Assembly: GCA_038883775.1 (NCBI GenBank)
Contig: JAVZLM010000007.1
Location: 90,589-154,588, forward strand
DNA from: Candidatus Bathyarchaeia archaeon
GTDB lineage: Archaea; Thermoproteota; Bathyarchaeia; Bathyarchaeales; Bathycorpusculaceae
DNA: 64,000 nt
Direction of reading: 5' to 3'
The notes under the pieces are model-generated. The model worked only from the letters and a program-made list of their open reading frames with translations, searched no databases and was not told the origin of the DNA. Position numbers and translations under genes: made by a program. Shown here piece after piece: positions 26,047 to 35,106 of this stretch (position 1 is the stretch's first letter; every line of letters starts with the position of its first letter).

Positions 26047-29000
26047 TTAGCCACCTCCAAAGGCTTCTGTTTCTAAACATGCAGCCTTAATTTGCGCAAG
26101 AAACTGCTCATCTGTGTAATGGCGCATTTTAATAGCCTTGGTTGGACAAGCAGAAACGCATAAACCACAGCCTTGACACATGGCTTCTACAACCTCAGCC
26201 CTGATCCTTCCGGCACCATCTGAGCTTTCGGTTTTTAATTCTATGGCGACAAATGGGCATATTGCCTCACAAAGGCGACAACCACTACACAAGTCTTCGT
26301 CTACAACTGCTTTCAATGGTTCAAGCTCGATTTCCCCACTTGCCAAAAGGTCTATGGCTTTTGCTGCTGCCCCACTTGCTTGAGCCACAGTATCCGGAAT
26401 ATCTTTTGGACCTTGGCATGTGCCAGCAATGAAAATTCCAGTTATTGCACTTTCCAGAGGGCGCAGTTTTGGATGAGCTTCTAATAGGAAGCCGTCGGCG
26501 CTTCTTGAAACATGGAATATGCTACTTATTTTTCCCAAGTCGCTGTTTGGAACGAGACCACTGGCAAGCACAACAAGATCTGAACGCAGTTCGAAGAGTT
26601 TGTTTGTTCCCTTATCATAAACGTCAAAGTAAAGCGAACCATCAGATGCGCAGCGAATTTCGGAAGGTAAACCAGCAACGAAGTTTATGCCCATTTCTCT
26701 TGCTCGCCCATAAAACTCGTCATAACCCTTGCCAAAAGCTCGCATGTCATTAAAACAAACATAAATGTCCACTTCCTTGCCGAGTTTTTCTCGAGTGAGT
26801 ATTGCTTGTTTTAATGTTGCCATACAGCCGATACGACAACAGTATTCGTGAAACCTAGAGTCCCTCGAACCCACGCATTGGATAAACGCGACGGTTTTTG
26901 GCGTTTTACCGTTTTGGGGGCAAAGGATTTTTCCGTTAGTTGGTCCAGAAGCATTGCATAGTCTTTCAAATTGGAGGTTTGTGATTATGTTTTTTGATTT
27001 CCCAAAGCTGTATTCTTGGATTTTTGAGGCATCAAAAAGTTCGCTTCCAGTAGCAATTATTATCGCACCAACCTTAACGTTTATCCTTTGAGGCTTTTGT
27101 TTGTGGTTTAGCGCCTTTGCTTCGCATACTTTTTCGCATTCTAAACATTCAGAGCAACCACCACAAGCAAGACAACGCTTAGCTTCTTCAATAGCCATTT
27201 CTTCACTAAAGCCCAACTCAACCTCGTCAAAACTTCTAATTCTCTCTTCAATAGGCAGAAGAGGCATAACTTGCCTTTTCCTCTTTTCTATGCCTACTTT
27301 CGGCGATATTTTAACTGGAGGCAGCCCTTTCTCTTCAACAGCTTTCAAGTCTTCGCCGCGCAAGTATTTGTGGATAGAAATTGCTGCCCTTTTTCCTGCT
27401 GCTACTGCTTCAATAACTGTGGCTGGACCTAAAACTGCGTCTCCGCCAGCAAATACGTAGGGGATATTTGTTTGAAGAGTTTGGGGATCAACCTCTATCG
27501 TGCCATGATTTAGCTTCAACCCATTTGGCAGAGAAGCCATATCCAAAGCTTGACCTATGGTTGTGATGACCGTATCCGCTGGGATTATGTGTTCTGAACC
27601 TTGAATGGGAACTGGTTTTCTCCTTCCCGTCTCATCTGGTTCTGTGAGCATCATTTCAAAACACTCAACAGCGACAACTTTGCCATTTTCGCCGATAATT
27701 CTTTTAGGTGCTTTGAGAAAGAGAAATTCGACACCTTCCTTCTCTGCCTGCTCAACTTCTGGTTGAAATGCTGGCATCTCTTCGCGTGATCTTCTATATA
27801 GAACGTAAACTTTTTTGGCTCCTAACCGCAACGCAACTCTAGAAACGTCAATGGCGACGTTTCCCCCGCCTACCACTACGACACGCTCTCCAACCTCAAC
27901 CTTTTTTCCCAAATTCACATTTTTTAGGAATTCAACACCTTGAAAAACGCCTTGAAATTCTTCCCCTTCAATGCCTAATGTTAAGCTTTTTTGCATGCCA
28001 ACAGCTAAGAAAACTGCCTTATACCACATTTTCTTCAAATCTTCAAAACTTAAATCTTTACCAATAGTTACATTGGTACGGATTTGAACACCTAAACTTT
28101 CCAAATATTCAATTTCTTTTGCCAAAATCTTTTTTGGAAGCCTATATTCAGGTATGCCTATTCTTAACATGCCGCCTGGTTCTGGCAAGGCCTCAAAAAC
28201 TGTTACTGAATAACCCATTTTTACTAGCTCATAGGCTGCAGTTAACCCCGCTGGACCAGAGCCTATCACTGCAATTTTTTCCTCATATTGCGGTTGGATT
28301 GGAGTTGGTTTTTCTTGAGGTTGTTTCATCATGTAATCTGCAACGAAACGTTTTAGGGCGCAGATTGCAATTGGTTCCTCAACATCGCTCCTCTCACAGT
28401 CATTCTCGCATGGGTGAAAACAAACTCTTCCCAACACAGCAGGGAATGGTATAGCTTTTCTAATCAACTCATAAGCTTCTTTAAATTTTCCCTTTGCTAT
28501 GAGGGCAACGTAGCCTTGAGCGTTTACGTCAGCTGGACAAGCGGCTCTGCATCGGGCTGTGCCCTTTTTATCTATCGTGTAAACGTTTGGAACTGCTTGG
28601 GGATAAGGTCTGTAAATTGCTTTTCTTTCGGCAAGCTTCAATTCAAACTCGTTCGGTAATGCGATTGGACATACTTTTTCACATTCGCCACAACCTGTAC
28701 ATTTAGCTTCATCCACATATCTCGGGTTTTTTACGATAGAGACCTCGTAGTTACCAACAAAACCTGATACGTTTTCCACTTCCGCACAAGTTATCAATTG
28801 TATATTTGGATGCCTTGCCACTTCGGTCATTTTTGGCGTTAATATGCATGCACTACAATCAAGGGTTGGAAATGTCTTGTCAAGTAAAGCCATTTTTCCA
28901 CCTATGCTTGGAGACCTCTCCACCAAAAAGACCTTCAAGCCCGCATTGGCTAAATCTAGTGCCGCTTGAATTCCCGCTATTCCACCGCCCAAAACTAGAA

Positions 29001-29430
29001 CACTTTTTTCAGCACGCACTTTACTTCTTTGCAGTGGCTCTAAGAGTCTTGCACGGGCTACGCCTATTCTTATAAGGTCTTTTGCTTTCTCTGTGGCTTT
29101 TTGTGGTTCTTCGCTGTGAACCCATGAGACATGCTCTCTTAGATTGACAATTTCAAGCAAGTATGGGTTTAAGCTTGCTTCAGCAACTGTTTTGCGGAAG
29201 GTTTCTTCATGCATTCTTGGCGAGCATGTGGCGATAACTATTCTGTCAAGGTTATGCGCTTTTATGTCTTCTTTAATCATGCGCTGTCCAGTTTCGGAAC
29301 ACATGTAAACATAGTGCTTAGCCACTACAACATCTGGCAATTTCTCAGCGTATTCAGCTACCTTATCTACATCAACAACTCCTGCAATGTTTAAGCCGCA
29401 GTGGCAAACGTAAACGCCTATCCTAGGCAT
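26047..29430 (-). CDS. hdrA: HdrA with inserted GltD-like NAD(P)H-binding flavoprotein module (HdrL-like)
   Basis: RIGVYVCHCG, GGGIAG, FPTLDCSAC, FIQCVGSRD, CCRIGC, EAHPKLRP and GPKDIP; insert has CRAACP, GRVCFHPCE, GSGPAG, GGGNVA, YRR and FAGGD. Confidence 0.93.
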   Translation of the reverse strand: MPRIGVYVCHCGLNIAGVVDVDKVAEYAEKLPDVVVAKHYVYMCSETGQRMIKEDIKAHNLDRIVIATCSPRMHEETFRKTVAEASLNPYLLEIVNLREHVSWVHSEEPQKATEKAKDLIRIGVARARLLEPLQRSKVRAEKSVLVLGGGIAGIQAALDLANAGLKVFLVERSPSIGGKMALLDKTFPTLDCSACILTPKMTEVARHPNIQLITCAEVENVSGFVGNYEVSIVKNPRYVDEAKCTGCGECEKVCPIALPNEFELKLAERKAIYRPYPQAVPNVYTIDKKGTARCRAACPADVNAQGYVALIAKGKFKEAYELIRKAIPFPAVLGRVCFHPCENDCERSDVEEPIAICALKRFVADYMMKQPQEKPTPIQPQYEEKIAVIGSGPAGLTAAYELVKMGYSVTVFEALPEPGGMLRIGIPEYRLPKKILAKEIEYLESLGVQIRTNVTIGKDLSFEDLKKMWYKAVFLAVGMQKSLTLGIEGEEFQGVFQGVEFLKNVNLGKKVEVGERVVVVGGGNVAIDVSRVALRLGAKKVYVLYRRSREEMPAFQPEVEQAEKEGVEFLFLKAPKRIIGENGKVVAVECFEMMLTEPDETGRRKPVPIQGSEHIIPADTVITTIGQALDMASLPNGLKLNHGTIEVDPQTLQTNIPYVFAGGDAVLGPATVIEAVAAGKRAAISIHKYLRGEDLKAVEEKGLPPVKISPKVGIEKRKRQVMPLLPIEERIRSFDEVELGFSEEMAIEEAKRCLACGGCSECLECEKVCEAKALNHKQKPQRINVKVGAIIIATGSELFDASKIQEYSFGKSKNIITNLQFERLCNASGPTNGKILCPQNGKTPKTVAFIQCVGSRDSRFHEYCCRIGCMATLKQAILTREKLGKEVDIYVCFNDMRAFGKGYDEFYGRAREMGINFVAGLPSEIRCASDGSLYFDVYDKGTNKLFELRSDLVVLASGLVPNSDLGKISSIFHVSRSADGFLLEAHPKLRPLESAITGIFIAGTCQGPKDIPDTVAQASGAAAKAIDLLASGEIELEPLKAVVDEDLCSGCRLCEAICPFVAIELKTESSDGAGRIRAEVVEAMCQGCGLCVSACPTKAIKMRHYTDEQFLAQIKAACLETEAFGGG

Positions 29431-29518: not shown

Positions 29519-30022
29519 TTAGTAAACTGAAACCTTAGCTACACCTTTTATTTTCAAAAATTCTGGGATTAATTCGCCTGGAATTTTTTTCTCAGCAATC
29601 AAAGTCAATTTTGGTTCAGGCGACAATTCTGGGTCATCTACTATTGCTTGTCTTATGCTTAAACCAGCTTTTGCAAGAAGTGAGGCGGAGCTTGCGAGTA
29701 TGCCTGGAATTCGTGCATCCACAGGCGTTATTTCAACAACTCCCAAGTCTAAATGTTTGGCAATTTCTTTTAAAGAGTGCCCTGCTGACCTTAATCCTTC
29801 GAAGATTTGTTTTAGTTCATGGTTTGTGTGGATAGCATTTAGTGTCTCATTTACGGTTCTTCTGTCTACTCTGGCGACTCTTGCTATGCGCACTGGAGGA
29901 ATTTCGATTTCATTAAGGTAGATTTTTCCGTTTCTTACGCTTAGTCCATTTTCTACAAGAACTCTGGCTACTTTTAGTCTTTCTGGATAGCCTTCTAAAC
30001 ATTTTACGATTTTGCTCCACAT
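29519..30022 (-). CDS. trpY: TrpY-family tryptophan-responsive regulator (HTH plus ACT, COG2150)
   Basis: MW..I...EGYP.R..VAR, VDRRTV, DARIPGILA, SIRQA..DDPEL, ending VSVY; divergent from trpB2. Confidence 0.88.
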   Translation of the reverse strand: MWSKIVKCLEGYPERLKVARVLVENGLSVRNGKIYLNEIEIPPVRIARVARVDRRTVNETLNAIHTNHELKQIFEGLRSAGHSLKEIAKHLDLGVVEITPVDARIPGILASSASLLAKAGLSIRQAIVDDPELSPEPKLTLIAEKKIPGELIPEFLKIKGVAKVSVY

Positions 30023-30038
30023 ATTGCGGATTCCTTCA

Positions 30039-30120
30039 TGTACTGTTTTGTGCAGTAAAGTATAAATATGTTCGTGTTGTCTTTAGTATAATACTATACG
30101 TAAATGAACAAAAAAATACA
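30039..30120. promoter_or_regulatory. Two arrays of TRP-box-like hexamers (TGTACA consensus, 4-bp spacers)
   Basis: TGTACT-gttt-TGTGCA-gtaa-AGTATA-aata-TGTTCG (30039-30074) and AGTATA-atac-TATACG-taaa-TGAACA-aaaa-AATACA (30085-30120). Confidence 0.7.
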
Positions 30121-30135
30121 TGAGGGAACATCTAT

Positions 30136-31491
30136 ATGCAACAAAAAATCAACGAAAGCTTCACAATACTTACCCCAGAAGAAATACCGAAAGAATGGTA
30201 TAATATACAAGCAGACCTTCCAGAGCCCTTACCGCCACCATTAGACCCCACAACCCTAAAACCAATAAGCCCCCAACTTCTGGAAAGAATATTCGCAAAG
30301 GAGCTCATAAAACAAGAAGTTTCCACAGAACGTTACATAAAAATTCCAGAAGAAGTTTTGGATGCTTATCTAAGGCTTCCACGCCCAACACCGCTTTACA
30401 GAGCCAAAAGATTAGAAAAGTATCTGAAAACGCCCGCCCAAATATACTTCAAATGTGAAAACTTCAGCCCCACAGGAAGCCACAAAACTAACACAGCCAT
30501 TGCCCAAGCCTACTACAACAAAGAACAAGGAATAAAAAGATTAGTGACGGAAACAGGAGCAGGACAGTGGGGAACAGCCCTAGCCTTTTCATGCACAATT
30601 TTCGGATTAAAATGCCGAATCTACATGGTTAGGGCAAGCTATTATCAAAAACCTGGCAGAAGAATCATAGCGCAAATTTATGGCGCAGAAATGTTTCCAT
30701 CACCAAGCGAACAAACAAACTTTGGCAGAAAACTGCTCAAGGAAAACCCGGAAAACCCTGGAACTTTGGGGATAGCCATAACAGAAGCCATCGAAGACAC
30801 GTTAACAAACGAAGACACTCGCTATTCTTTGGGTTCCGTTCTGAACCACGTGCTTATGCATCAGACAATAGTGGGCTTAGAAGCAAAAAAACAGTTTGAA
30901 CTTATAGACGCTTATCCAGATGTGGTTTGTGGTTGCATAGGTGGAGGTTCCAACTATGCGGGTTTCGCATTTCCCTTCATGATGGACAAACTCAAAGGCA
31001 AGACAGACACGGAGTTTGTTGCTTGTGAATCAAAGGCTGTTCCCCACACGACCAGAGGCGTTTACACTTATGATTATGGAGATACTGGCAAAATGACGCC
31101 GCTTCTGAAAATGTTAACAATTGGACACGGCTATGCTTGTCCACCCATCCATGCGGGCGGTTTGCGATACCACGGGATGGCGCCCTTGATATCTTACCTA
31201 ATACATGAGGGTTATATGCGCTCTGTGGCCTATGCTCAAAACGAAGTTTTCGAAGCTGCCAAAATCTTAGCCCAAACAGAAGGATTAATAATAGCTCCTG
31301 AGACTGCTCACAGTCTAAAATTCGTAATTGATGAGGCATTAAGATGTAAGAAAACTGACGAGAAAAAAGTAATTGCAATGAATTATAGCGGACATGGCTT
31401 GCTTGATCTAACAGCTTATGAACAGTTTCTCGGTGGCAAACTGATAGATTACGAGCCAGAAAAAATCGAAGTTCCAATTTTCAGCCATTAA
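30136..31491 (+). CDS. trpB2: Tryptophan synthase beta chain, TrpB2 type
   Basis: IPKEWYNI, RPTPLYRA, SPTGSHKTN, TETGAGQWG, GSLG-like PGTLGIAITEA, GGGSN and HAGGLRYHG motifs; no adjacent trpA. Confidence 0.95.
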   Translation: MQQKINESFTILTPEEIPKEWYNIQADLPEPLPPPLDPTTLKPISPQLLERIFAKELIKQEVSTERYIKIPEEVLDAYLRLPRPTPLYRAKRLEKYLKTPAQIYFKCENFSPTGSHKTNTAIAQAYYNKEQGIKRLVTETGAGQWGTALAFSCTIFGLKCRIYMVRASYYQKPGRRIIAQIYGAEMFPSPSEQTNFGRKLLKENPENPGTLGIAITEAIEDTLTNEDTRYSLGSVLNHVLMHQTIVGLEAKKQFELIDAYPDVVCGCIGGGSNYAGFAFPFMMDKLKGKTDTEFVACESKAVPHTTRGVYTYDYGDTGKMTPLLKMLTIGHGYACPPIHAGGLRYHGMAPLISYLIHEGYMRSVAYAQNEVFEAAKILAQTEGLIIAPETAHSLKFVIDEALRCKKTDEKKVIAMNYSGHGLLDLTAYEQFLGGKLIDYEPEKIEVPIFSH

Positions 31492-31501
31492 GGTAAAGAA
31501 A

Positions 31502-32125
31502 ATGACGGAAAAACAGGATTTCAAAATCGTTTTTCTTCCAATAGACTCTTTAAAACCCCATGAAAAAGGCTCCCCGCTATATTTGGAACTTTTGAAACAA
31601 GAGATTCTCAGAGATGGTTTGTTAAAGTATCCAATAATTGCTGATGAAAAAACCCATGTCATATTGGATGGAATGCACCGATGGCTTGCCCTAAAAAGTC
31701 TTGGTTATTCGTTAATACCAGTCCTACTTGTCGATGCCTTTCAAAACCCAAAAATTCGCGTTGGAAGGAGGAGGATTCACCGTTACATATGCGCTTCTGA
31801 TGAAGAAATAAGCGTTGAGAAAGTCATCACAGCGGGACTTAGTGGACGCCTTATGAACCCCCGCTCCACAAGACATTTTTTCAGCTTCTCAAAATTTCAA
31901 GAAATAAATTGCCCCCTTAGCAAATTGAGAAAACGTGCTCCACAAGATGTTTCCGAATATCTTGCGAAAATGACGAGAGAAGAGTGCAATTTAGCCATTA
32001 AGGAATGGTTAGAGGAAATATCTGAAGAATTAGAGTTTCTGACGAAAAGAAGGAAAGAAGTAGAAAAGGAAATGGAGGAATTCTTAAACAGAATAAAAGG
32101 TTTAAACAACCTTCTGATACATTAA
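31502..32125 (+). CDS. ParB/sulfiredoxin-fold protein, SerK/SbnI-like kinase core plus C-terminal coiled coil
   Basis: LKPHE, ILDGMHRW and PRSTRH motifs; starts 10 nt after trpB2. Confidence 0.75.
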   Translation: MTEKQDFKIVFLPIDSLKPHEKGSPLYLELLKQEILRDGLLKYPIIADEKTHVILDGMHRWLALKSLGYSLIPVLLVDAFQNPKIRVGRRRIHRYICASDEEISVEKVITAGLSGRLMNPRSTRHFFSFSKFQEINCPLSKLRKRAPQDVSEYLAKMTREECNLAIKEWLEEISEELEFLTKRRKEVEKEMEEFLNRIKGLNNLLIH

Positions 32126-32209: not shown

Positions 32210-33313
32210 ATGATTTCAATTAATGCCCCACAAATTGGAAAAGAGGAAATCGATGCTGCTATCAAAGTTTTAAAAAGTGGGATTTTAACCCACGGACTTG
32301 GCGCTGGTCCGATGGTGAAACAGTTTGAAAAGGCTTACGCAAAGTTTGTAAGAGCAAAGGAAGCGGTAGCCGTAAACTCTGGAACCGCAGCTCTACATTT
32401 GGCACTGATGGCGGCGGGTATAAAACCAAGCGATGAGGTTATTCTCCCAAGCTTCACTTTCGTAGCCACAGCCGAAACCATAGTCACGGTTGGAGCCAAA
32501 CCAGTCTTTACGGACATAAACCCGGAAACATACAATATCTCTCCAGAAAAAATTGAAGAAGCCATAACAAAAAAGACTAAGGCTATAGTACCCGTGGACC
32601 TTTATGGTTTATCGGCAGATATGAAACCCATAAAAGAAATTGCCGAAAAATATGGATTAAAAATAATTGAGGACGCTGCCCAAGCCCATGGCGCACATTA
32701 CATGGGACAAAACCCTGGAACTTATGCTGATGTCGCATGTTGGAGCTTTTACGCAAGCAAGAACATGACAACTGGCGAGGGGGGAATGATAACAACCAAC
32801 GATGAGAAAATAGCAGAAAAAATTCGCCTTATGAGAAGTCACGGTGAAATGGAGAAGTATACATCCATAATGTTGGGATATAACTATCGCATGCCAGAAA
32901 TTGAAGCAGCTATAGGCTATGTTCAGCTTGAAAAATTACCAAGATTTTTGGCGAAAAGAAGGGAAAACGTTGAAAGACTTGCAAGTAAACTGAAAAGCGC
33001 AAAAGAGTTAGCATTGCCGAAAGAACCGTTGGGGTATAAGCATAGTTGGTATCTCTTTACGGTCAGATTGAAAAAAGCAAGAAGGGAAGAAAGGGATAAA
33101 ATTGTTGAAGAACTAAAAAAGAAGGGAATAGGCGCAGAAGTTTACTATCCAAATCCAATACACTTAATGCCATTCTACAAAAAATTTGGAAAACGCAAAC
33201 TTCCAGAAACAGAAAAAGCTGCAGAACAAGTTTTCTCCTTACCAGTCCATCCAGGCGTCACGGCGGAGCAAATAGAGTTTATAGGCGAAACAGTTTTACA
33301 TTTAATAGGATAG
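32210..33313 (+). CDS. DegT/DnrJ/EryC1/StrS sugar aminotransferase
   Basis: NSGTAAL, IEDAAQAHG, SFYASKNMTTGEGG and GYNYRM motifs. Confidence 0.95.
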   Translation: MISINAPQIGKEEIDAAIKVLKSGILTHGLGAGPMVKQFEKAYAKFVRAKEAVAVNSGTAALHLALMAAGIKPSDEVILPSFTFVATAETIVTVGAKPVFTDINPETYNISPEKIEEAITKKTKAIVPVDLYGLSADMKPIKEIAEKYGLKIIEDAAQAHGAHYMGQNPGTYADVACWSFYASKNMTTGEGGMITTNDEKIAEKIRLMRSHGEMEKYTSIMLGYNYRMPEIEAAIGYVQLEKLPRFLAKRRENVERLASKLKSAKELALPKEPLGYKHSWYLFTVRLKKARREERDKIVEELKKKGIGAEVYYPNPIHLMPFYKKFGKRKLPETEKAAEQVFSLPVHPGVTAEQIEFIGETVLHLIG

Positions 33314-33382: not shown

Positions 33383-34726
33383 GTGATTAGTGCCATGAAA
33401 AAAGTTAAAGTTATAATAATGGGAGCGGCGGGTAGAGACTTCCATAATTTTAATGTCTACTTCCGAAACAACGACGCTTACGAAGTTGTTGCCTTCACAG
33501 CCACGCAGATTCCAGGAATAGAGGGCAGAACATATCCCTCGGAGCTTGCCGGCCCACACTATCCTAAAGGAATACCAATTTATCCAGAAGAAAAACTGCC
33601 TGAATTAATAAAGGATTATGATGTTGACGAAGTGGTTTTTGCGTACAGCGATGTTTCCCATGAATACGTCATGCACAAAGCTTCTATAGCATTGTCAAGC
33701 GGAGCAGATTTCCGGTTAATGGGACCAAAGACAACAATGTTGAAGGCAAAAATTCCAGTGGTTTCTGTGGGTGCTGTCAGAACTGGTTCTGGAAAAAGTC
33801 AAACATCAAGACAAGTTGCAAAAATCTTAAAAAACAAGGGCTTAAGGGTTGTCGCCATCAGACACCCAATGCCCTACGGAGACTTAACAAAGCAGATTTG
33901 CCAAAGATTTGCTTCCTACGAAGACTTGGACAAACATCAGTGCACCATCGAAGAAAGAGAGGAATATGAACCCCACATTGACAATGGCATAATTGTTTAC
34001 GCGGGCGTTGACTACGAAAAGATTCTACATGAAGCTGAAAAGGAAGCGGACATCATCGTTTGGGATGGAGGCAACAATGACCTACCATTCTATAAACCAG
34101 ACTTACACATAGTCGTTGCAGATCCCCATAGGGCAGGACACGAACTAACCTATCATCCCGGAGAGGCTAATTTGCGAATGGCAAACGTCGTAATAATAAA
34201 TAAGGTGGACACAGCACAACCAGAAAACGTGAAAAAAGTCAAAGAAAACATAAAAAATGTTAATTCTACCGCTCTAATATTGGAGGCAGCCTCGCCATTA
34301 ACAGCCGACAATCCCGAACTAATCAAGGGAAAACGTGCCCTAGTAATTGAGGATGGCCCAACACTAACGCATGGAAACATGCCTTATGGAGCCGCAACAA
34401 TAATGGCGCAAAAGTCCGGAGCAAGCGAAATTGTTGACCCTAGACCTTATGCGGTGGGTTCAATAAAGAAAACTTATAGAACTTACACTCATTTAGGAAA
34501 AATCCTTCCAGCGCTGGGTTATGGAGAGAAACAAATAGCTGAACTTAAAGAAACTATTGACAGAACACCTTGCGATGTCGTGGTTATAGGAACACCAATA
34601 GACCTAAGAAGAGTCGTGACGTTAAGCAAGCCCACAGTAAGAGTCAAATATGAACTCCAAGTTTTAGGCTCTGTAACTCTTGAGCAAATATTGGAAGAAT
34701 TCCTCAAAAAAGGTGGAAAATGGTGA
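33383..34726 (+). CDS. COG2403 P-loop protein, ArcE (arginine synthetase)-like; often annotated as cyclic 2,3-diphosphoglycerate synthase/GTPase
   Basis: GAAGRDFHNFN, AFTATQIP, RTGSGKS, RHPMPYG, IEEREEYE, WDGGNND and EDGPTLTHG motifs; alternative ATG at 33395. Confidence 0.8.
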   Translation: MISAMKKVKVIIMGAAGRDFHNFNVYFRNNDAYEVVAFTATQIPGIEGRTYPSELAGPHYPKGIPIYPEEKLPELIKDYDVDEVVFAYSDVSHEYVMHKASIALSSGADFRLMGPKTTMLKAKIPVVSVGAVRTGSGKSQTSRQVAKILKNKGLRVVAIRHPMPYGDLTKQICQRFASYEDLDKHQCTIEEREEYEPHIDNGIIVYAGVDYEKILHEAEKEADIIVWDGGNNDLPFYKPDLHIVVADPHRAGHELTYHPGEANLRMANVVIINKVDTAQPENVKKVKENIKNVNSTALILEAASPLTADNPELIKGKRALVIEDGPTLTHGNMPYGAATIMAQKSGASEIVDPRPYAVGSIKKTYRTYTHLGKILPALGYGEKQIAELKETIDRTPCDVVVIGTPIDLRRVVTLSKPTVRVKYELQVLGSVTLEQILEEFLKKGGKW

Positions 34727-35106
34727 GCAGCGAAGAGCAAGAAATTTCACGTGTAAAAATAAAGTTCATAATTGAAGGATTAGGAGAAGCAGAAGGAGAG
34801 CTTGTACGCTTTTTAGCGCCAAGAACCATAGACATGCTTGTTAGAAAGCTCCCAATAGAGGGCAGAACAGCCCTATGGAAAGAAGAAGTCTACTTTGAAA
34901 CACCAATAAAAATGGGAGAAGAAAAAGCAAAAAGCACCGTAGAAAAGGGAACAATAGCCTTTTGGCCAATGGGAAGCGCCCTCTGCATATTTTACGGAGA
35001 ATCACAGCCCTATAGTCCAGTTAATGTTTTGGGAAAAATCACTAAAAATCTTGAATTATTTAAGCAAGTGAAGAGCGGAACAAAAATCAGAGTAGAATCT
35101 GCTTAA
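34720..35106 (+). CDS. Cyclophilin-like fold protein (DUF369/COG2164)
   Basis: WKEEVYF, GTIAFWPMGSALCIFYG and SPVNVLG motifs. Confidence 0.85.
   Translation: MVSSEEQEISRVKIKFIIEGLGEAEGELVRFLAPRTIDMLVRKLPIEGRTALWKEEVYFETPIKMGEEKAKSTVEKGTIAFWPMGSALCIFYGESQPYSPVNVLGKITKNLELFKQVKSGTKIRVESA

Follow-up and report, generated by a model that had tools for sequence, protein, structure and literature searches.

A compact SerK-like protein encoded behind trpB2 in Bathyarchaeia: a candidate source of O-phosphoserine for tryptophan salvage

TrpB2-type tryptophan synthase beta enzymes are widespread, bind indole tightly and prefer O-phospho-L-serine (OPS) in vitro. To our knowledge, nobody has stated where their OPS comes from, or why a cell would pay for it. 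Both questions are raised by a locus of a Candidatus Bathyarchaeia archaeon (family Bathycorpusculaceae), which belongs to a group characterised as hot-spring archaea. The locus lies in a 64,000-nt stretch, here called the window (positions 90589-154588 of contig JAVZLM010000007.1, contig C7 of assembly GCA_038883775.1; assembly size 1.69 Mb, completeness 91.4%, contamination 5.1%). Here a trpB2 gene is followed by the gene of a 207-aa protein of the ParB/Srx fold, termed mini-SerK in this work after the free-serine kinase SerK. A first-pass annotation of the window had proposed that this protein is a dedicated serine kinase feeding TrpB2 in a tryptophan salvage module. Sequence comparison and structure prediction incline us, cautiously, to read mini-SerK as a minimal free-serine kinase that would supply OPS to TrpB2, and wherever this interpretation is open to computational testing the outcome supports it. 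The features of the locus, in window coordinates, are as follows.

29519-30022, minus strand: trpY, a 167-aa open reading frame (ORF) for a TrpY-family transcription regulator, divergent from trpB2
30023-30135, 113 nt: trpY-trpB2 control region with a TGTAC box, a TGTGCA box, a TATA-like element and degenerate boxes
30136-31491, plus strand: trpB2, a 451-aa ORF for a stand-alone TrpB2-type tryptophan synthase beta
31492-31501, plus strand: 10-nt spacer from the trpB2 stop to the mini-SerK start
31502-32125, plus strand: mini-SerK gene, 207 aa, ParB/Srx-fold, SerK/SbnI-like, putative free L-serine kinase
31505-31939, plus strand: catalytic core of mini-SerK (residues 2-146), a ParB/Srx domain (KPHE, DGMHRW) with a short C-terminal PRSTRH element
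31976-32119, plus strand: C-terminal charged helix of mini-SerK (residues 159-206), a probable coiled coil

Gene order and predicted fold of mini-SerK

The arrangement described in the first-pass annotation, with trpY divergent from trpB2 and a ParB/Srx-fold gene 10 nt after the trpB2 stop, was reproduced in all its ORFs and in the spacer. The TAA stop of trpB2 ends at 31491 and the mini-SerK ATG lies at 31502, a spacing that implies one transcription unit. Two sequencing runs labelled metatranscriptomic, from a single study, were flagged as probably DNA (word shares 0.09 and 0.06), and no matching run is on record as RNA. Contigs from these runs (90% likeness) are short pieces of relatives; one of 209 nt covers the gene junction at 31360-31567, which is not used as evidence since a contig covering two genes does not demonstrate a single transcript.

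Both genes upstream of mini-SerK score above the cut-offs of their families. TrpY matches the NCBIfam model NF053754 with 189.6 bits (cut-off 180) over 163 of 163 profile positions, and TrpB2 matches NF009057 with 692.7 bits (cut-off 366) and TIGR01415 with 679.7 bits (cut-off 518.85). On the TrpB1 model TIGR00263, TrpB2 reaches 154.8 bits, below the cut-off of 392.45. The nearest solved relatives of TrpB2 are Sulfolobus TrpB2 chains (6hul_B, 4qys_B and 6hte_B). Residues 341-347 read GGLRYHG, a stretch shared with 4qys_B, while the TrpB1 proteins of two compared loci (L112 and L115) have GLDYPG with an Asp; Arg344 in this stretch is presumably the residue that would bind the phosphate of OPS. 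By analogy with its relatives, we infer that the TrpB2 of the window would use OPS. TrpB2 enzymes are reported to be OPS-dependent (Busch 2014, as cited in an excerpt of PMC11917138). The genome encodes three TrpB2 proteins of 451, 433 and 430 aa, the two paralogues being 51% and 47% identical to the window copy, which is the only one with TrpY and the kinase-like gene beside it.

The SerK motifs that had been recognised in the 207-aa protein can all be read from its translation, as LKPHEK (residues 17-22), DGMHRW (56-61) and PRSTRH (120-125); the catalytic motifs are invariant in 29 aligned orthologues. In a phmmer search against PDB chains, residues 4-82 align to SerK 15-95; E21 falls on SerK E30, the residue mutated in product-trapped SerK crystal entries according to their PDB titles, and DGMHRW falls on DGHHRW, which gives mini-SerK an N-domain with both the KPHE glutamate and DGxHR(W). 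A second match, a weak one, pairs residues 106-131 with SerK 206-231 and places PRSTRH on PKTTRH (220-225). Between the two, SerK residues 96-205 (~110 residues) correspond to just 23 residues of mini-SerK (83-105): some 90 residues of the C-domain are gone and the terminal PxxTRH element is kept, in line with the earlier impression that the middle of SerK is missing. SbnI (5ujd, 6nr6, 5uje) and SerK (5x0b and others, 1vk1) are matched in the same search at E-values of 5e-8 to 1.5e-6, ParB-type chains reaching only about 0.5. A Pfam scan of the protein gave no family at E <= 0.01, and thus no assignment to PF02195 (ParB N-terminal domain), which is present as a precomputed match on some close homologues. 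Those homologues that carry a name come from Bathyarchaeia or 'Bathycorpusculaceae' and are annotated 'ParB N-terminal domain-containing protein' or hypothetical.

An AF2 model of mini-SerK (mean pLDDT 90.5, from a 14-row alignment) retrieved only SerK or SbnI entries as its top nine Foldseek matches. VIA-align superposed model residues 2-143 or 3-146 onto SerK 10-242 and SbnI 1-223 with 130-140 aligned residues. The superposition that the first-pass annotation had proposed as a check covers model residues 2-146, and the predicted fold is specifically SerK/SbnI-like, clearly closer to these proteins than generic ParB/Srx similarity would be. The model ends in a single long helix (159-206 by DSSP; block pLDDT 84-96) rich in Glu, Lys and Arg, which agrees with the acidic/basic tail proposed from the letters and is a probable coiled coil. 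Its residues W169, E172, E175, E176, F179 and L180 are invariant in the 29 orthologues, as are P19, H20, E21, K22, G23 and S24, D56-W61, P120 and T123-F127 in the core, at a mean column identity of 75%. The invariance of the KPHE, DGxHR and TRH set indicates that selection acts on exactly the SerK-type motifs. A prediction of the complex between TrpB2 and mini-SerK scored 0.00, which says nothing about binding either way.

The best structural match, 1vk1, is a Pyrococcus furiosus protein that, according to an excerpt of Makino et al. (PMC5120207), has a reported nuclease activity, and mini-SerK could accordingly be imagined as a ParB-like nuclease. The same excerpt states that later work identified this family as the serine kinase SerK (PMC5120207). 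The gene contexts of the family also lack any link to DNA metabolism, and we regard a nuclease as highly improbable.

Linkage to trpB2 and to tryptophan

The spacer between trpY and trpB2 holds TGTAC at 30039-30043, TGTGCA at 30049-30054, an A/T-rich TATA-like element at 30057-30068 and more degenerate boxes before the trpB2 start, the TGTAC at 30039 being its one exact box. Across the compared loci the trpY-proximal half of the spacer is near-identical; in it, two TGTAC-type boxes separated by 5-6 nt precede the TATA-like element, and a typical spacer has two or three further boxes just before trpB2. TGTAC or GTACA occurs 223 times in the 10,807 nt of 89 trpY-trpB2 spacers (2.06 per 100 nt versus 0.051 genome-wide, ~40-fold), and at least two boxes are found in 66 of the 89 spacers compared with 0.7% of random 113-nt windows. 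We take TGTACA to be the TrpY box from Methanothermobacter work, and with this consensus operator boxes are present in the target promoter. Together with the TrpY score, the enriched boxes support control by tryptophan, as the first-pass annotation had proposed. The genome-wide frequency of TGTAC/GTACA is itself ~4 times below the expectation from base composition (GC 0.41), which makes TrpY-type boxes stand out more and may reflect a restriction system that targets GTAC.

To evaluate the linkage of the two genes, one genome per GTDB species was surveyed, and 67 loci encoding orthologues of mini-SerK (the long form of the family) were found, all Bathyarchaeia by title except for one contig labelled bacterium. 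Only matches spanning at least 40% of a query entered the comparison, and the denominators exclude loci with less than 900 nt upstream for TrpB2 (3 of 67) or less than 2000 nt for TrpY (11 of 67). Wherever the flanking DNA suffices, mini-SerK is directly preceded by TrpB2 (64 of 64 loci); a divergent trpY is found at all 56 loci with at least 2 kb upstream. Across 65 related loci, a median of 10 nt lies between the trpB2 stop and the next ATG, negative or large values reflecting uncertain start codons. The neighbourhood survey that had been called for thus finds the linkage conserved. On the other side, an A/T-rich 84-nt gap separates mini-SerK from a DegT/DnrJ/EryC1-type aminotransferase gene that starts at 32210; among related loci this gene follows within 300 nt in 41 of 60, further away in 9 and is absent from the locus in 10. 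In five loci (L022, L028, L030, L041 and L081) the upstream TrpB2 is 55-59% identical to that of the window and the kinase-like protein 76-80% identical, which indicates that the pairing outlived an exchange, or a strong divergence, of TrpB2.

A second arrangement was found in two genomes of the host's family that belong to other genera (G148 and G330). There, a short form of the family (142-158 aa) is encoded between trpY and a trpB2 of the 59% type, on the trpB2 strand and therefore upstream of trpB2 (trpY, divergent, then short mini-SerK, then trpB2; L240:3808-6320 in G148 and L241:3731-6309 in G330). These proteins have KGHEK, DGHHR and a PPKSTWH element and are without the terminal helix. 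In a maximum likelihood tree of 85 family members (IQ-TREE, LG+G4, 177 columns), the long-form group linked to TrpB2 is a clade with 100/99 support, and the G148 and G330 proteins fall in a separate clade, also with 100/99 support, together with short forms that have unrelated neighbours. Forcing both TrpB2-linked kinds into one clade cost 46.6 log-likelihood units and was rejected (p-AU 0.018), which implies that two different family members were independently placed in a trpB2 operon, one on each side of the gene. We regard this apparent twofold recruitment, read from gene order and phylogeny, as the best computational argument that the two genes are functionally linked.

The metabolic setting fits salvage. 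In the host assembly, trpA neither adjoins trpB2, as had already been stated, nor is it detected anywhere by profile search (best 21.6 bits, cut-off 102.35). Searches of the same assembly for trpB1 matched only the three TrpB2 paralogues (154, 144 and 94 bits, cut-off 392.45), those for indole-3-glycerol phosphate synthase (IGPS) gave at best 18.5 bits (cut-off 27), and those for trpD and for the chorismate-binding domain gave no match; in each search the positive controls were recovered from all 14 reference genomes. With five unlinked genes missed, a de novo tryptophan pathway is unlikely, although a completeness of 91% is no proof of absence, and the salvage setting proposed earlier is upheld to this extent, with none of trpA, B1, C, D or E above cut-off. 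SerB gave at best 32 bits (cut-off 144), and no SepRS scored above cut-off in this assembly. In the class sample, trpA is over cut-off in one of 8 long-form genomes and in 62 of 143 others, which is a trend only, the genomes being related and few. The sole long-form genome with trpA is G288, where contig C3 (L242:3608-5613) has a TrpB2 paralogue directly preceded and overlapped by a divergent trpA-like gene (139 bits), a pair of the TrpB2a-TrpA type that lies apart from the TrpY-TrpB2-kinase locus.

The wider family and its other partners

Proteins matching the family profile (E <= 1e-5) are encoded in 263 of 401 sampled Thermoproteota genomes, including 218 of 334 high-quality genomes, and in 119 of 162 genera; a library clustered at 50% identity contains 1151 representatives at E <= 0.001. 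Short forms of 140-180 aa are the commonest, and forms of 280-300 aa match in the N-domain only and were labelled SerK-like by their length and two-stretch matches. At 44 short-form loci from Thermoproteota, the neighbour is a PALP-fold gene of the CysK/CysM/OPSS/CBS-like kind in 14 (1 fused, 12 adjacent, 1 at 1.75 kb), trpB-trpA in 9 (2 on the same strand, 7 convergent), a tryptophanyl-tRNA synthetase (TrpRS) gene in 3 and a lysyl-tRNA synthetase gene in 2, and neighbours are unrelated or unidentified in 16. Taken with the trpB2-linked loci of both architectures, adjacency or fusion of a kinase-like gene to a PALP-fold beta-replacement enzyme is conserved across genomes. Fusions with a CysK-like partner include a 590-aa ORF in L086 (597-aa open frame) and the 582-aa protein P0142 (ParB_N plus PALP).

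The host genome itself contains a second family member of 140 aa (KQHEE, DGQHRF, PPKTSKH), located at ~98.6-100.0 kb of contig C6 (L009:1037-2382), which overlaps by 4 nt a gene for a 308-aa CysK/CysM-like protein (TIGR01136, 338 bits, just under the cut-off of 344). From its sequence, this pair looks like a module from serine via OPS to cysteine. The recurrence of CysK/OPSS-like partners and fusions suggests that the business of the family is serine or OPS.

These data also bear on the idea that mini-SerK is a general serine kinase, making OPS for cysteine or, like SerK in Thermococcus, directing serine towards 3-phosphoglycerate, with a trpB2 synteny that is accidental in one lineage. All 67 long-form loci do come from one archaeal class, the flanking DegT, 447-aa and cyclophilin-like genes are largely syntenic too, and unrelated housekeeping genes are the only neighbours at about 16 of the 44 short-form loci. 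However, a second member, paired with a CysK-like gene, is already encoded in the genome, and the linkage to trpB2 is stricter than that to other neighbours, survives the replacement of TrpB2 and arose twice. We give this explanation little credence.

The nearest sister of the long-form clade (98/95 support) points in another direction. Its members keep the terminal helix, which aligns with the same region of mini-SerK and there precedes fused nucleotidyltransferases; many of the proteins carry a fused cytidylyl/nucleotidyltransferase domain with an HxGH motif, or a fused domain resembling asparagine synthase. Of 80 metagenome loci of this clade (L160-L239), 75 were usable, five being dropped for lack of an ORF containing the match, and neighbour clusters were named from one representative each. 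Asp/Glu-racemase-like genes, sometimes with a methyltransferase, are found in 40 of the 75 loci, cytidylyltransferase-like genes in 32, LicD-family genes in 27, a radical-SAM/B12 protein in 10 and two clusters of CDP-alcohol phosphatidyltransferases in 8 and 7. By analogy, the cassette resembles a pathway of the LicA/LicC/LicD type, in which a phospho-alcohol is attached to a glycan; the racemase-like neighbour hints at an amino acid as this alcohol, and the cassette may decorate a glycan with a phospho-amino-acid. Example cassettes are L195:3542-4939, L181:6503-7180 and L203:4035-4844, a Wzx-type flippase is sometimes present, and one member of the clade is annotated from a marine Planktomarina genome.

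Given this context, mini-SerK could phosphorylate a different small compound with a hydroxyl group (D-serine, threonine, homoserine or a cofactor precursor, for example). Its product would then have a use outside TrpB2, and the adjacency to trpB2 would signify shared regulation only. The fusions and neighbours of the sister clade follow a logic of kinase, CDP-alcohol and transfer, and the serine-side part of the SerK C-domain is mostly missing in mini-SerK. Against this stand the recruitment of two unrelated family clades to trpB2, the partners used elsewhere in the family, which act on serine or OPS (CysK/OPSS-like, TrpB), and the looser linkage of DegT relative to trpB2 (41/60 versus 64/64); the racemase-like neighbour of the sister clade itself suggests an amino-acid substrate. 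We consider another substrate unlikely, if still the most credible of the alternatives weighed here. The sister-clade result cuts both ways: the fold is used for other ends, yet serine as the ancestral substrate is compatible with it.

Because TrpB2, CysK and DegT are all users of pyridoxal phosphate (PLP), a role as pyridoxal kinase was considered as well and rejected: the partners are fold-type-II users of serine or OPS, TrpRS and cassettes without PLP enzymes, and the fold-type-I DegT is the least stable neighbour.

Other genes around the locus complete the picture. Just past trpY, a 1127-aa ORF (26047-29430, minus strand) begins like HdrA and has a GltD/NfnB-type NAD(P)H-flavin-like middle, a label that comes from reading the translation only; its length is unusual for HdrA. 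Downstream, the stretch 33383-35106 (plus strand) holds two overlapping genes. The first encodes a 447-aa protein with weak P-loop matches only (cobW, LpxK, MipZ) and without an NCBIfam family, the second a cyclophilin-like protein (PF04126); most related genomes keep the pair in synteny with the trpB2 locus.

Weighing OPS supply to TrpB2 and comparison with known systems

Several results weigh against mini-SerK as a serine kinase feeding TrpB2, beginning with the protein itself. Its match to the SerK model NF053625 (E 1.3e-12) reaches 47.4 bits against a cut-off of 380 and covers residues 8-82 only, and its match to the SbnI model NF033589 (E 4e-8) reaches 32.9 bits against 350. The complete C-terminal domain of SerK (~145 residues) is not present, and with ~90 of its residues missing the substrate pocket may differ from that of SerK. 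Having failed the equivalog cut-offs and lacking this defining part of the C-domain, the protein is filed as SerK-like and not as SerK. The LicD, cytidylyltransferase and racemase context of the sister clade represents another downstream use and possibly another substrate, so the substrate of mini-SerK cannot simply be carried over from SerK. A 2025 survey, as excerpted, adds uncertainty about the phosphoryl donor, one archaeal SerK-like protein having bound CTP and not ATP (PMC12704722). The host also has two SerA-like dehydrogenases (312 and 296 bits, under the cut-off of 454), which leaves room for other OPS sources.

Gene presence weighs on the same side. TrpB2 is encoded in 113 of 151 sampled Bathyarchaeia genomes. 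TrpY is adjacent at all of the best 30 TrpB2 loci from the 151 genomes (29 divergent, 1 co-directional), and mini-SerK lies downstream in 7 of these (its own locus and L131-L136) and not in 23. Five genera of the host's family (g3, g4, g7, g8 and g9) have TrpB2 and no detected member of the kinase family. At loci without mini-SerK, no diverged copy was found among ten downstream ORFs searched for family matches, and an overlapping set of ten gave no match to the family profile with filters off (best E 0.17); the products of these unrelated ORFs include membrane proteins and a small protein of the HExxH type. Present behind 7 of the 30 best loci, mini-SerK is not an obligatory partner but was added in one lineage to a TrpY-TrpB2 module that is older. 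At five of the gene-less loci (family f76; L143, L146, L148, L150 and L151), a conserved ORF of 120-150 aa with HEFYHH (HExxH-like) and without a Pfam family overlaps the end of trpB2.

A further point comes from one short-form clade in the archaeal family f38, which is always beside tryptophan genes, either at the end of a canonical operon with trpB1-trpA (L096, L101, L108, L109, L112, L114, L115, L119 and L121) or next to TrpRS (L124, L125 and L128). The adjacent trpB is a canonical TrpB1 (642.8 bits on TIGR00263, with Asp in GLDYPG) and not of the OPS type, and we know of no OPS use by TrpB1. TrpB2 is encoded elsewhere, unlinked, in 5 of 5 f38 genomes tested. The adjacency marks a 'tryptophan neighbourhood' more than it proves a supply of OPS.

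Such neighbourhoods would suit a non-catalytic or regulatory partner, in which mini-SerK acts as a nucleotide-binding switch or as a sensor of serine or tryptophan that modulates TrpB2 or trp expression. ParB-fold proteins act as CTP switches, and SbnI also regulates; the NCBIfam name of SbnI is 'bifunctional transcriptional regulator/O-phospho-L-serine synthase'. The conserved C-terminal helix resembles an interaction module, one family has TrpRS and the TrpB1-TrpA pair as neighbours in place of an OPS user, and the ParB-CTPase fold binds various nucleoside triphosphates, including the CTP bound by one SerK-like protein (excerpt of PMC12704722). The catalytic Glu and the KPHE, DGxHR and TRH motifs are nevertheless invariant in mini-SerK, unlike those of the OPSS-like N-domains, where the three motifs have decayed; the Pfam scan revealed no HTH or other DNA-binding domain, and TrpY is already the regulator. 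A regulatory partner seems to us improbable, ranking just behind a kinase for another substrate and a little ahead of a general serine kinase.

Set against these points, fold, motifs, linkage, second recruitment, salvage setting and tryptophan boxes speak for the proposal of the first-pass annotation that a serine kinase feeds TrpB2, while carry-over of the substrate from SerK is weakened by the sister clade. The word 'dedicated' goes too far, since 23 of the 30 best TrpB2 loci do not have the gene downstream and no family member was found in several TrpB2-bearing sister genera. According to the proposed mechanism, mini-SerK would be co-transcribed with trpB2 from a TrpY-controlled promoter and would phosphorylate free L-serine to OPS, with ATP, ADP and CTP as candidate donors. 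TrpB2 would then condense OPS with scavenged indole to tryptophan and phosphate. The phosphoryl group would be spent on turning the serine hydroxyl into a good leaving group, and the route could in this way pull tryptophan formation at very low indole in an organism whose assembly shows no trpE, D, C, A or B1. A broader proposal, which we advance tentatively and with less conviction, is that the mini-SerK family, present in 263 of the 401 Thermoproteota genomes, is the missing in-house source of OPS for archaeal OPS-dependent PLP enzymes and has been wired twice, in one Bathyarchaeia lineage, into a TrpY-controlled path from serine via OPS to tryptophan that would be the only tryptophan route of the organism.

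If true, TrpB2 would gain a defined physiological partner for the first time, and a nucleotide-driven indole scavenger would replace a whole trp operon. Free-serine kinases would extend beyond staphylococci and a few genera of hyperthermophiles to a large family in archaea with a reduced architecture, and many 'ParB N-terminal domain protein' annotations would be corrected. Reconstructions of amino-acid auxotrophies in uncultured Bathyarchaeia would be affected too. Should the protein not be a serine kinase, its twice-evolved linkage to trpB2 would still mark a function tied to tryptophan.

A literature search, with most subscription journals outside its scope, found no description of a coupling between a serine kinase and TrpB2 and no named dedicated OPS source for TrpB2. 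The pairing of a ParB/Srx serine kinase with an OPS-using PLP enzyme is known logic; what is new is the TrpB2 partner, the minimal architecture and the far wider family. SerK makes OPS for cysteine synthesis, and its clear homologues were described as confined to Thermococcales and Desulfurococcales (excerpt of Makino et al., PMC5120207). Relative to SerK (Thermococcus kodakarensis TK0378, ADP-dependent, PDB 5x0b; P. furiosus 1vk1), mini-SerK is without ~90 residues of the C-domain, adds a terminal helix of ~50 residues and has TrpB2 as its partner, where that of SerK is CysK or serine catabolism. In the SbnI-SbnA system of Staphylococcus aureus, which serves staphyloferrin B, SbnI is a bacterial protein of 254 aa with a C-terminal regulatory part, and its product goes to a siderophore precursor and not to tryptophan. 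SerBK (DUF1015), also a remote relative of SerK and SbnI, has been proposed from context and genetics to interconvert serine and OPS; as excerpted, it represents a different, bacterial family, linked to serA/serC and to serine synthesis or use and not to tryptophan (PMC13759103). Compared with the OPS-dependent TrpB2 (Busch 2014), the enzyme type is the same, with GGLRYHG shared with 4qys_B, but a candidate kinase is encoded here in the same operon. The Methanothermobacter TrpY system is alike in its divergent TrpY-family regulator and in having several boxes of the TGTAC(A) type about a TATA element, whereas the target here is trpB2 with a kinase-like gene in a genome where no trpEGCFBAD operon was found.

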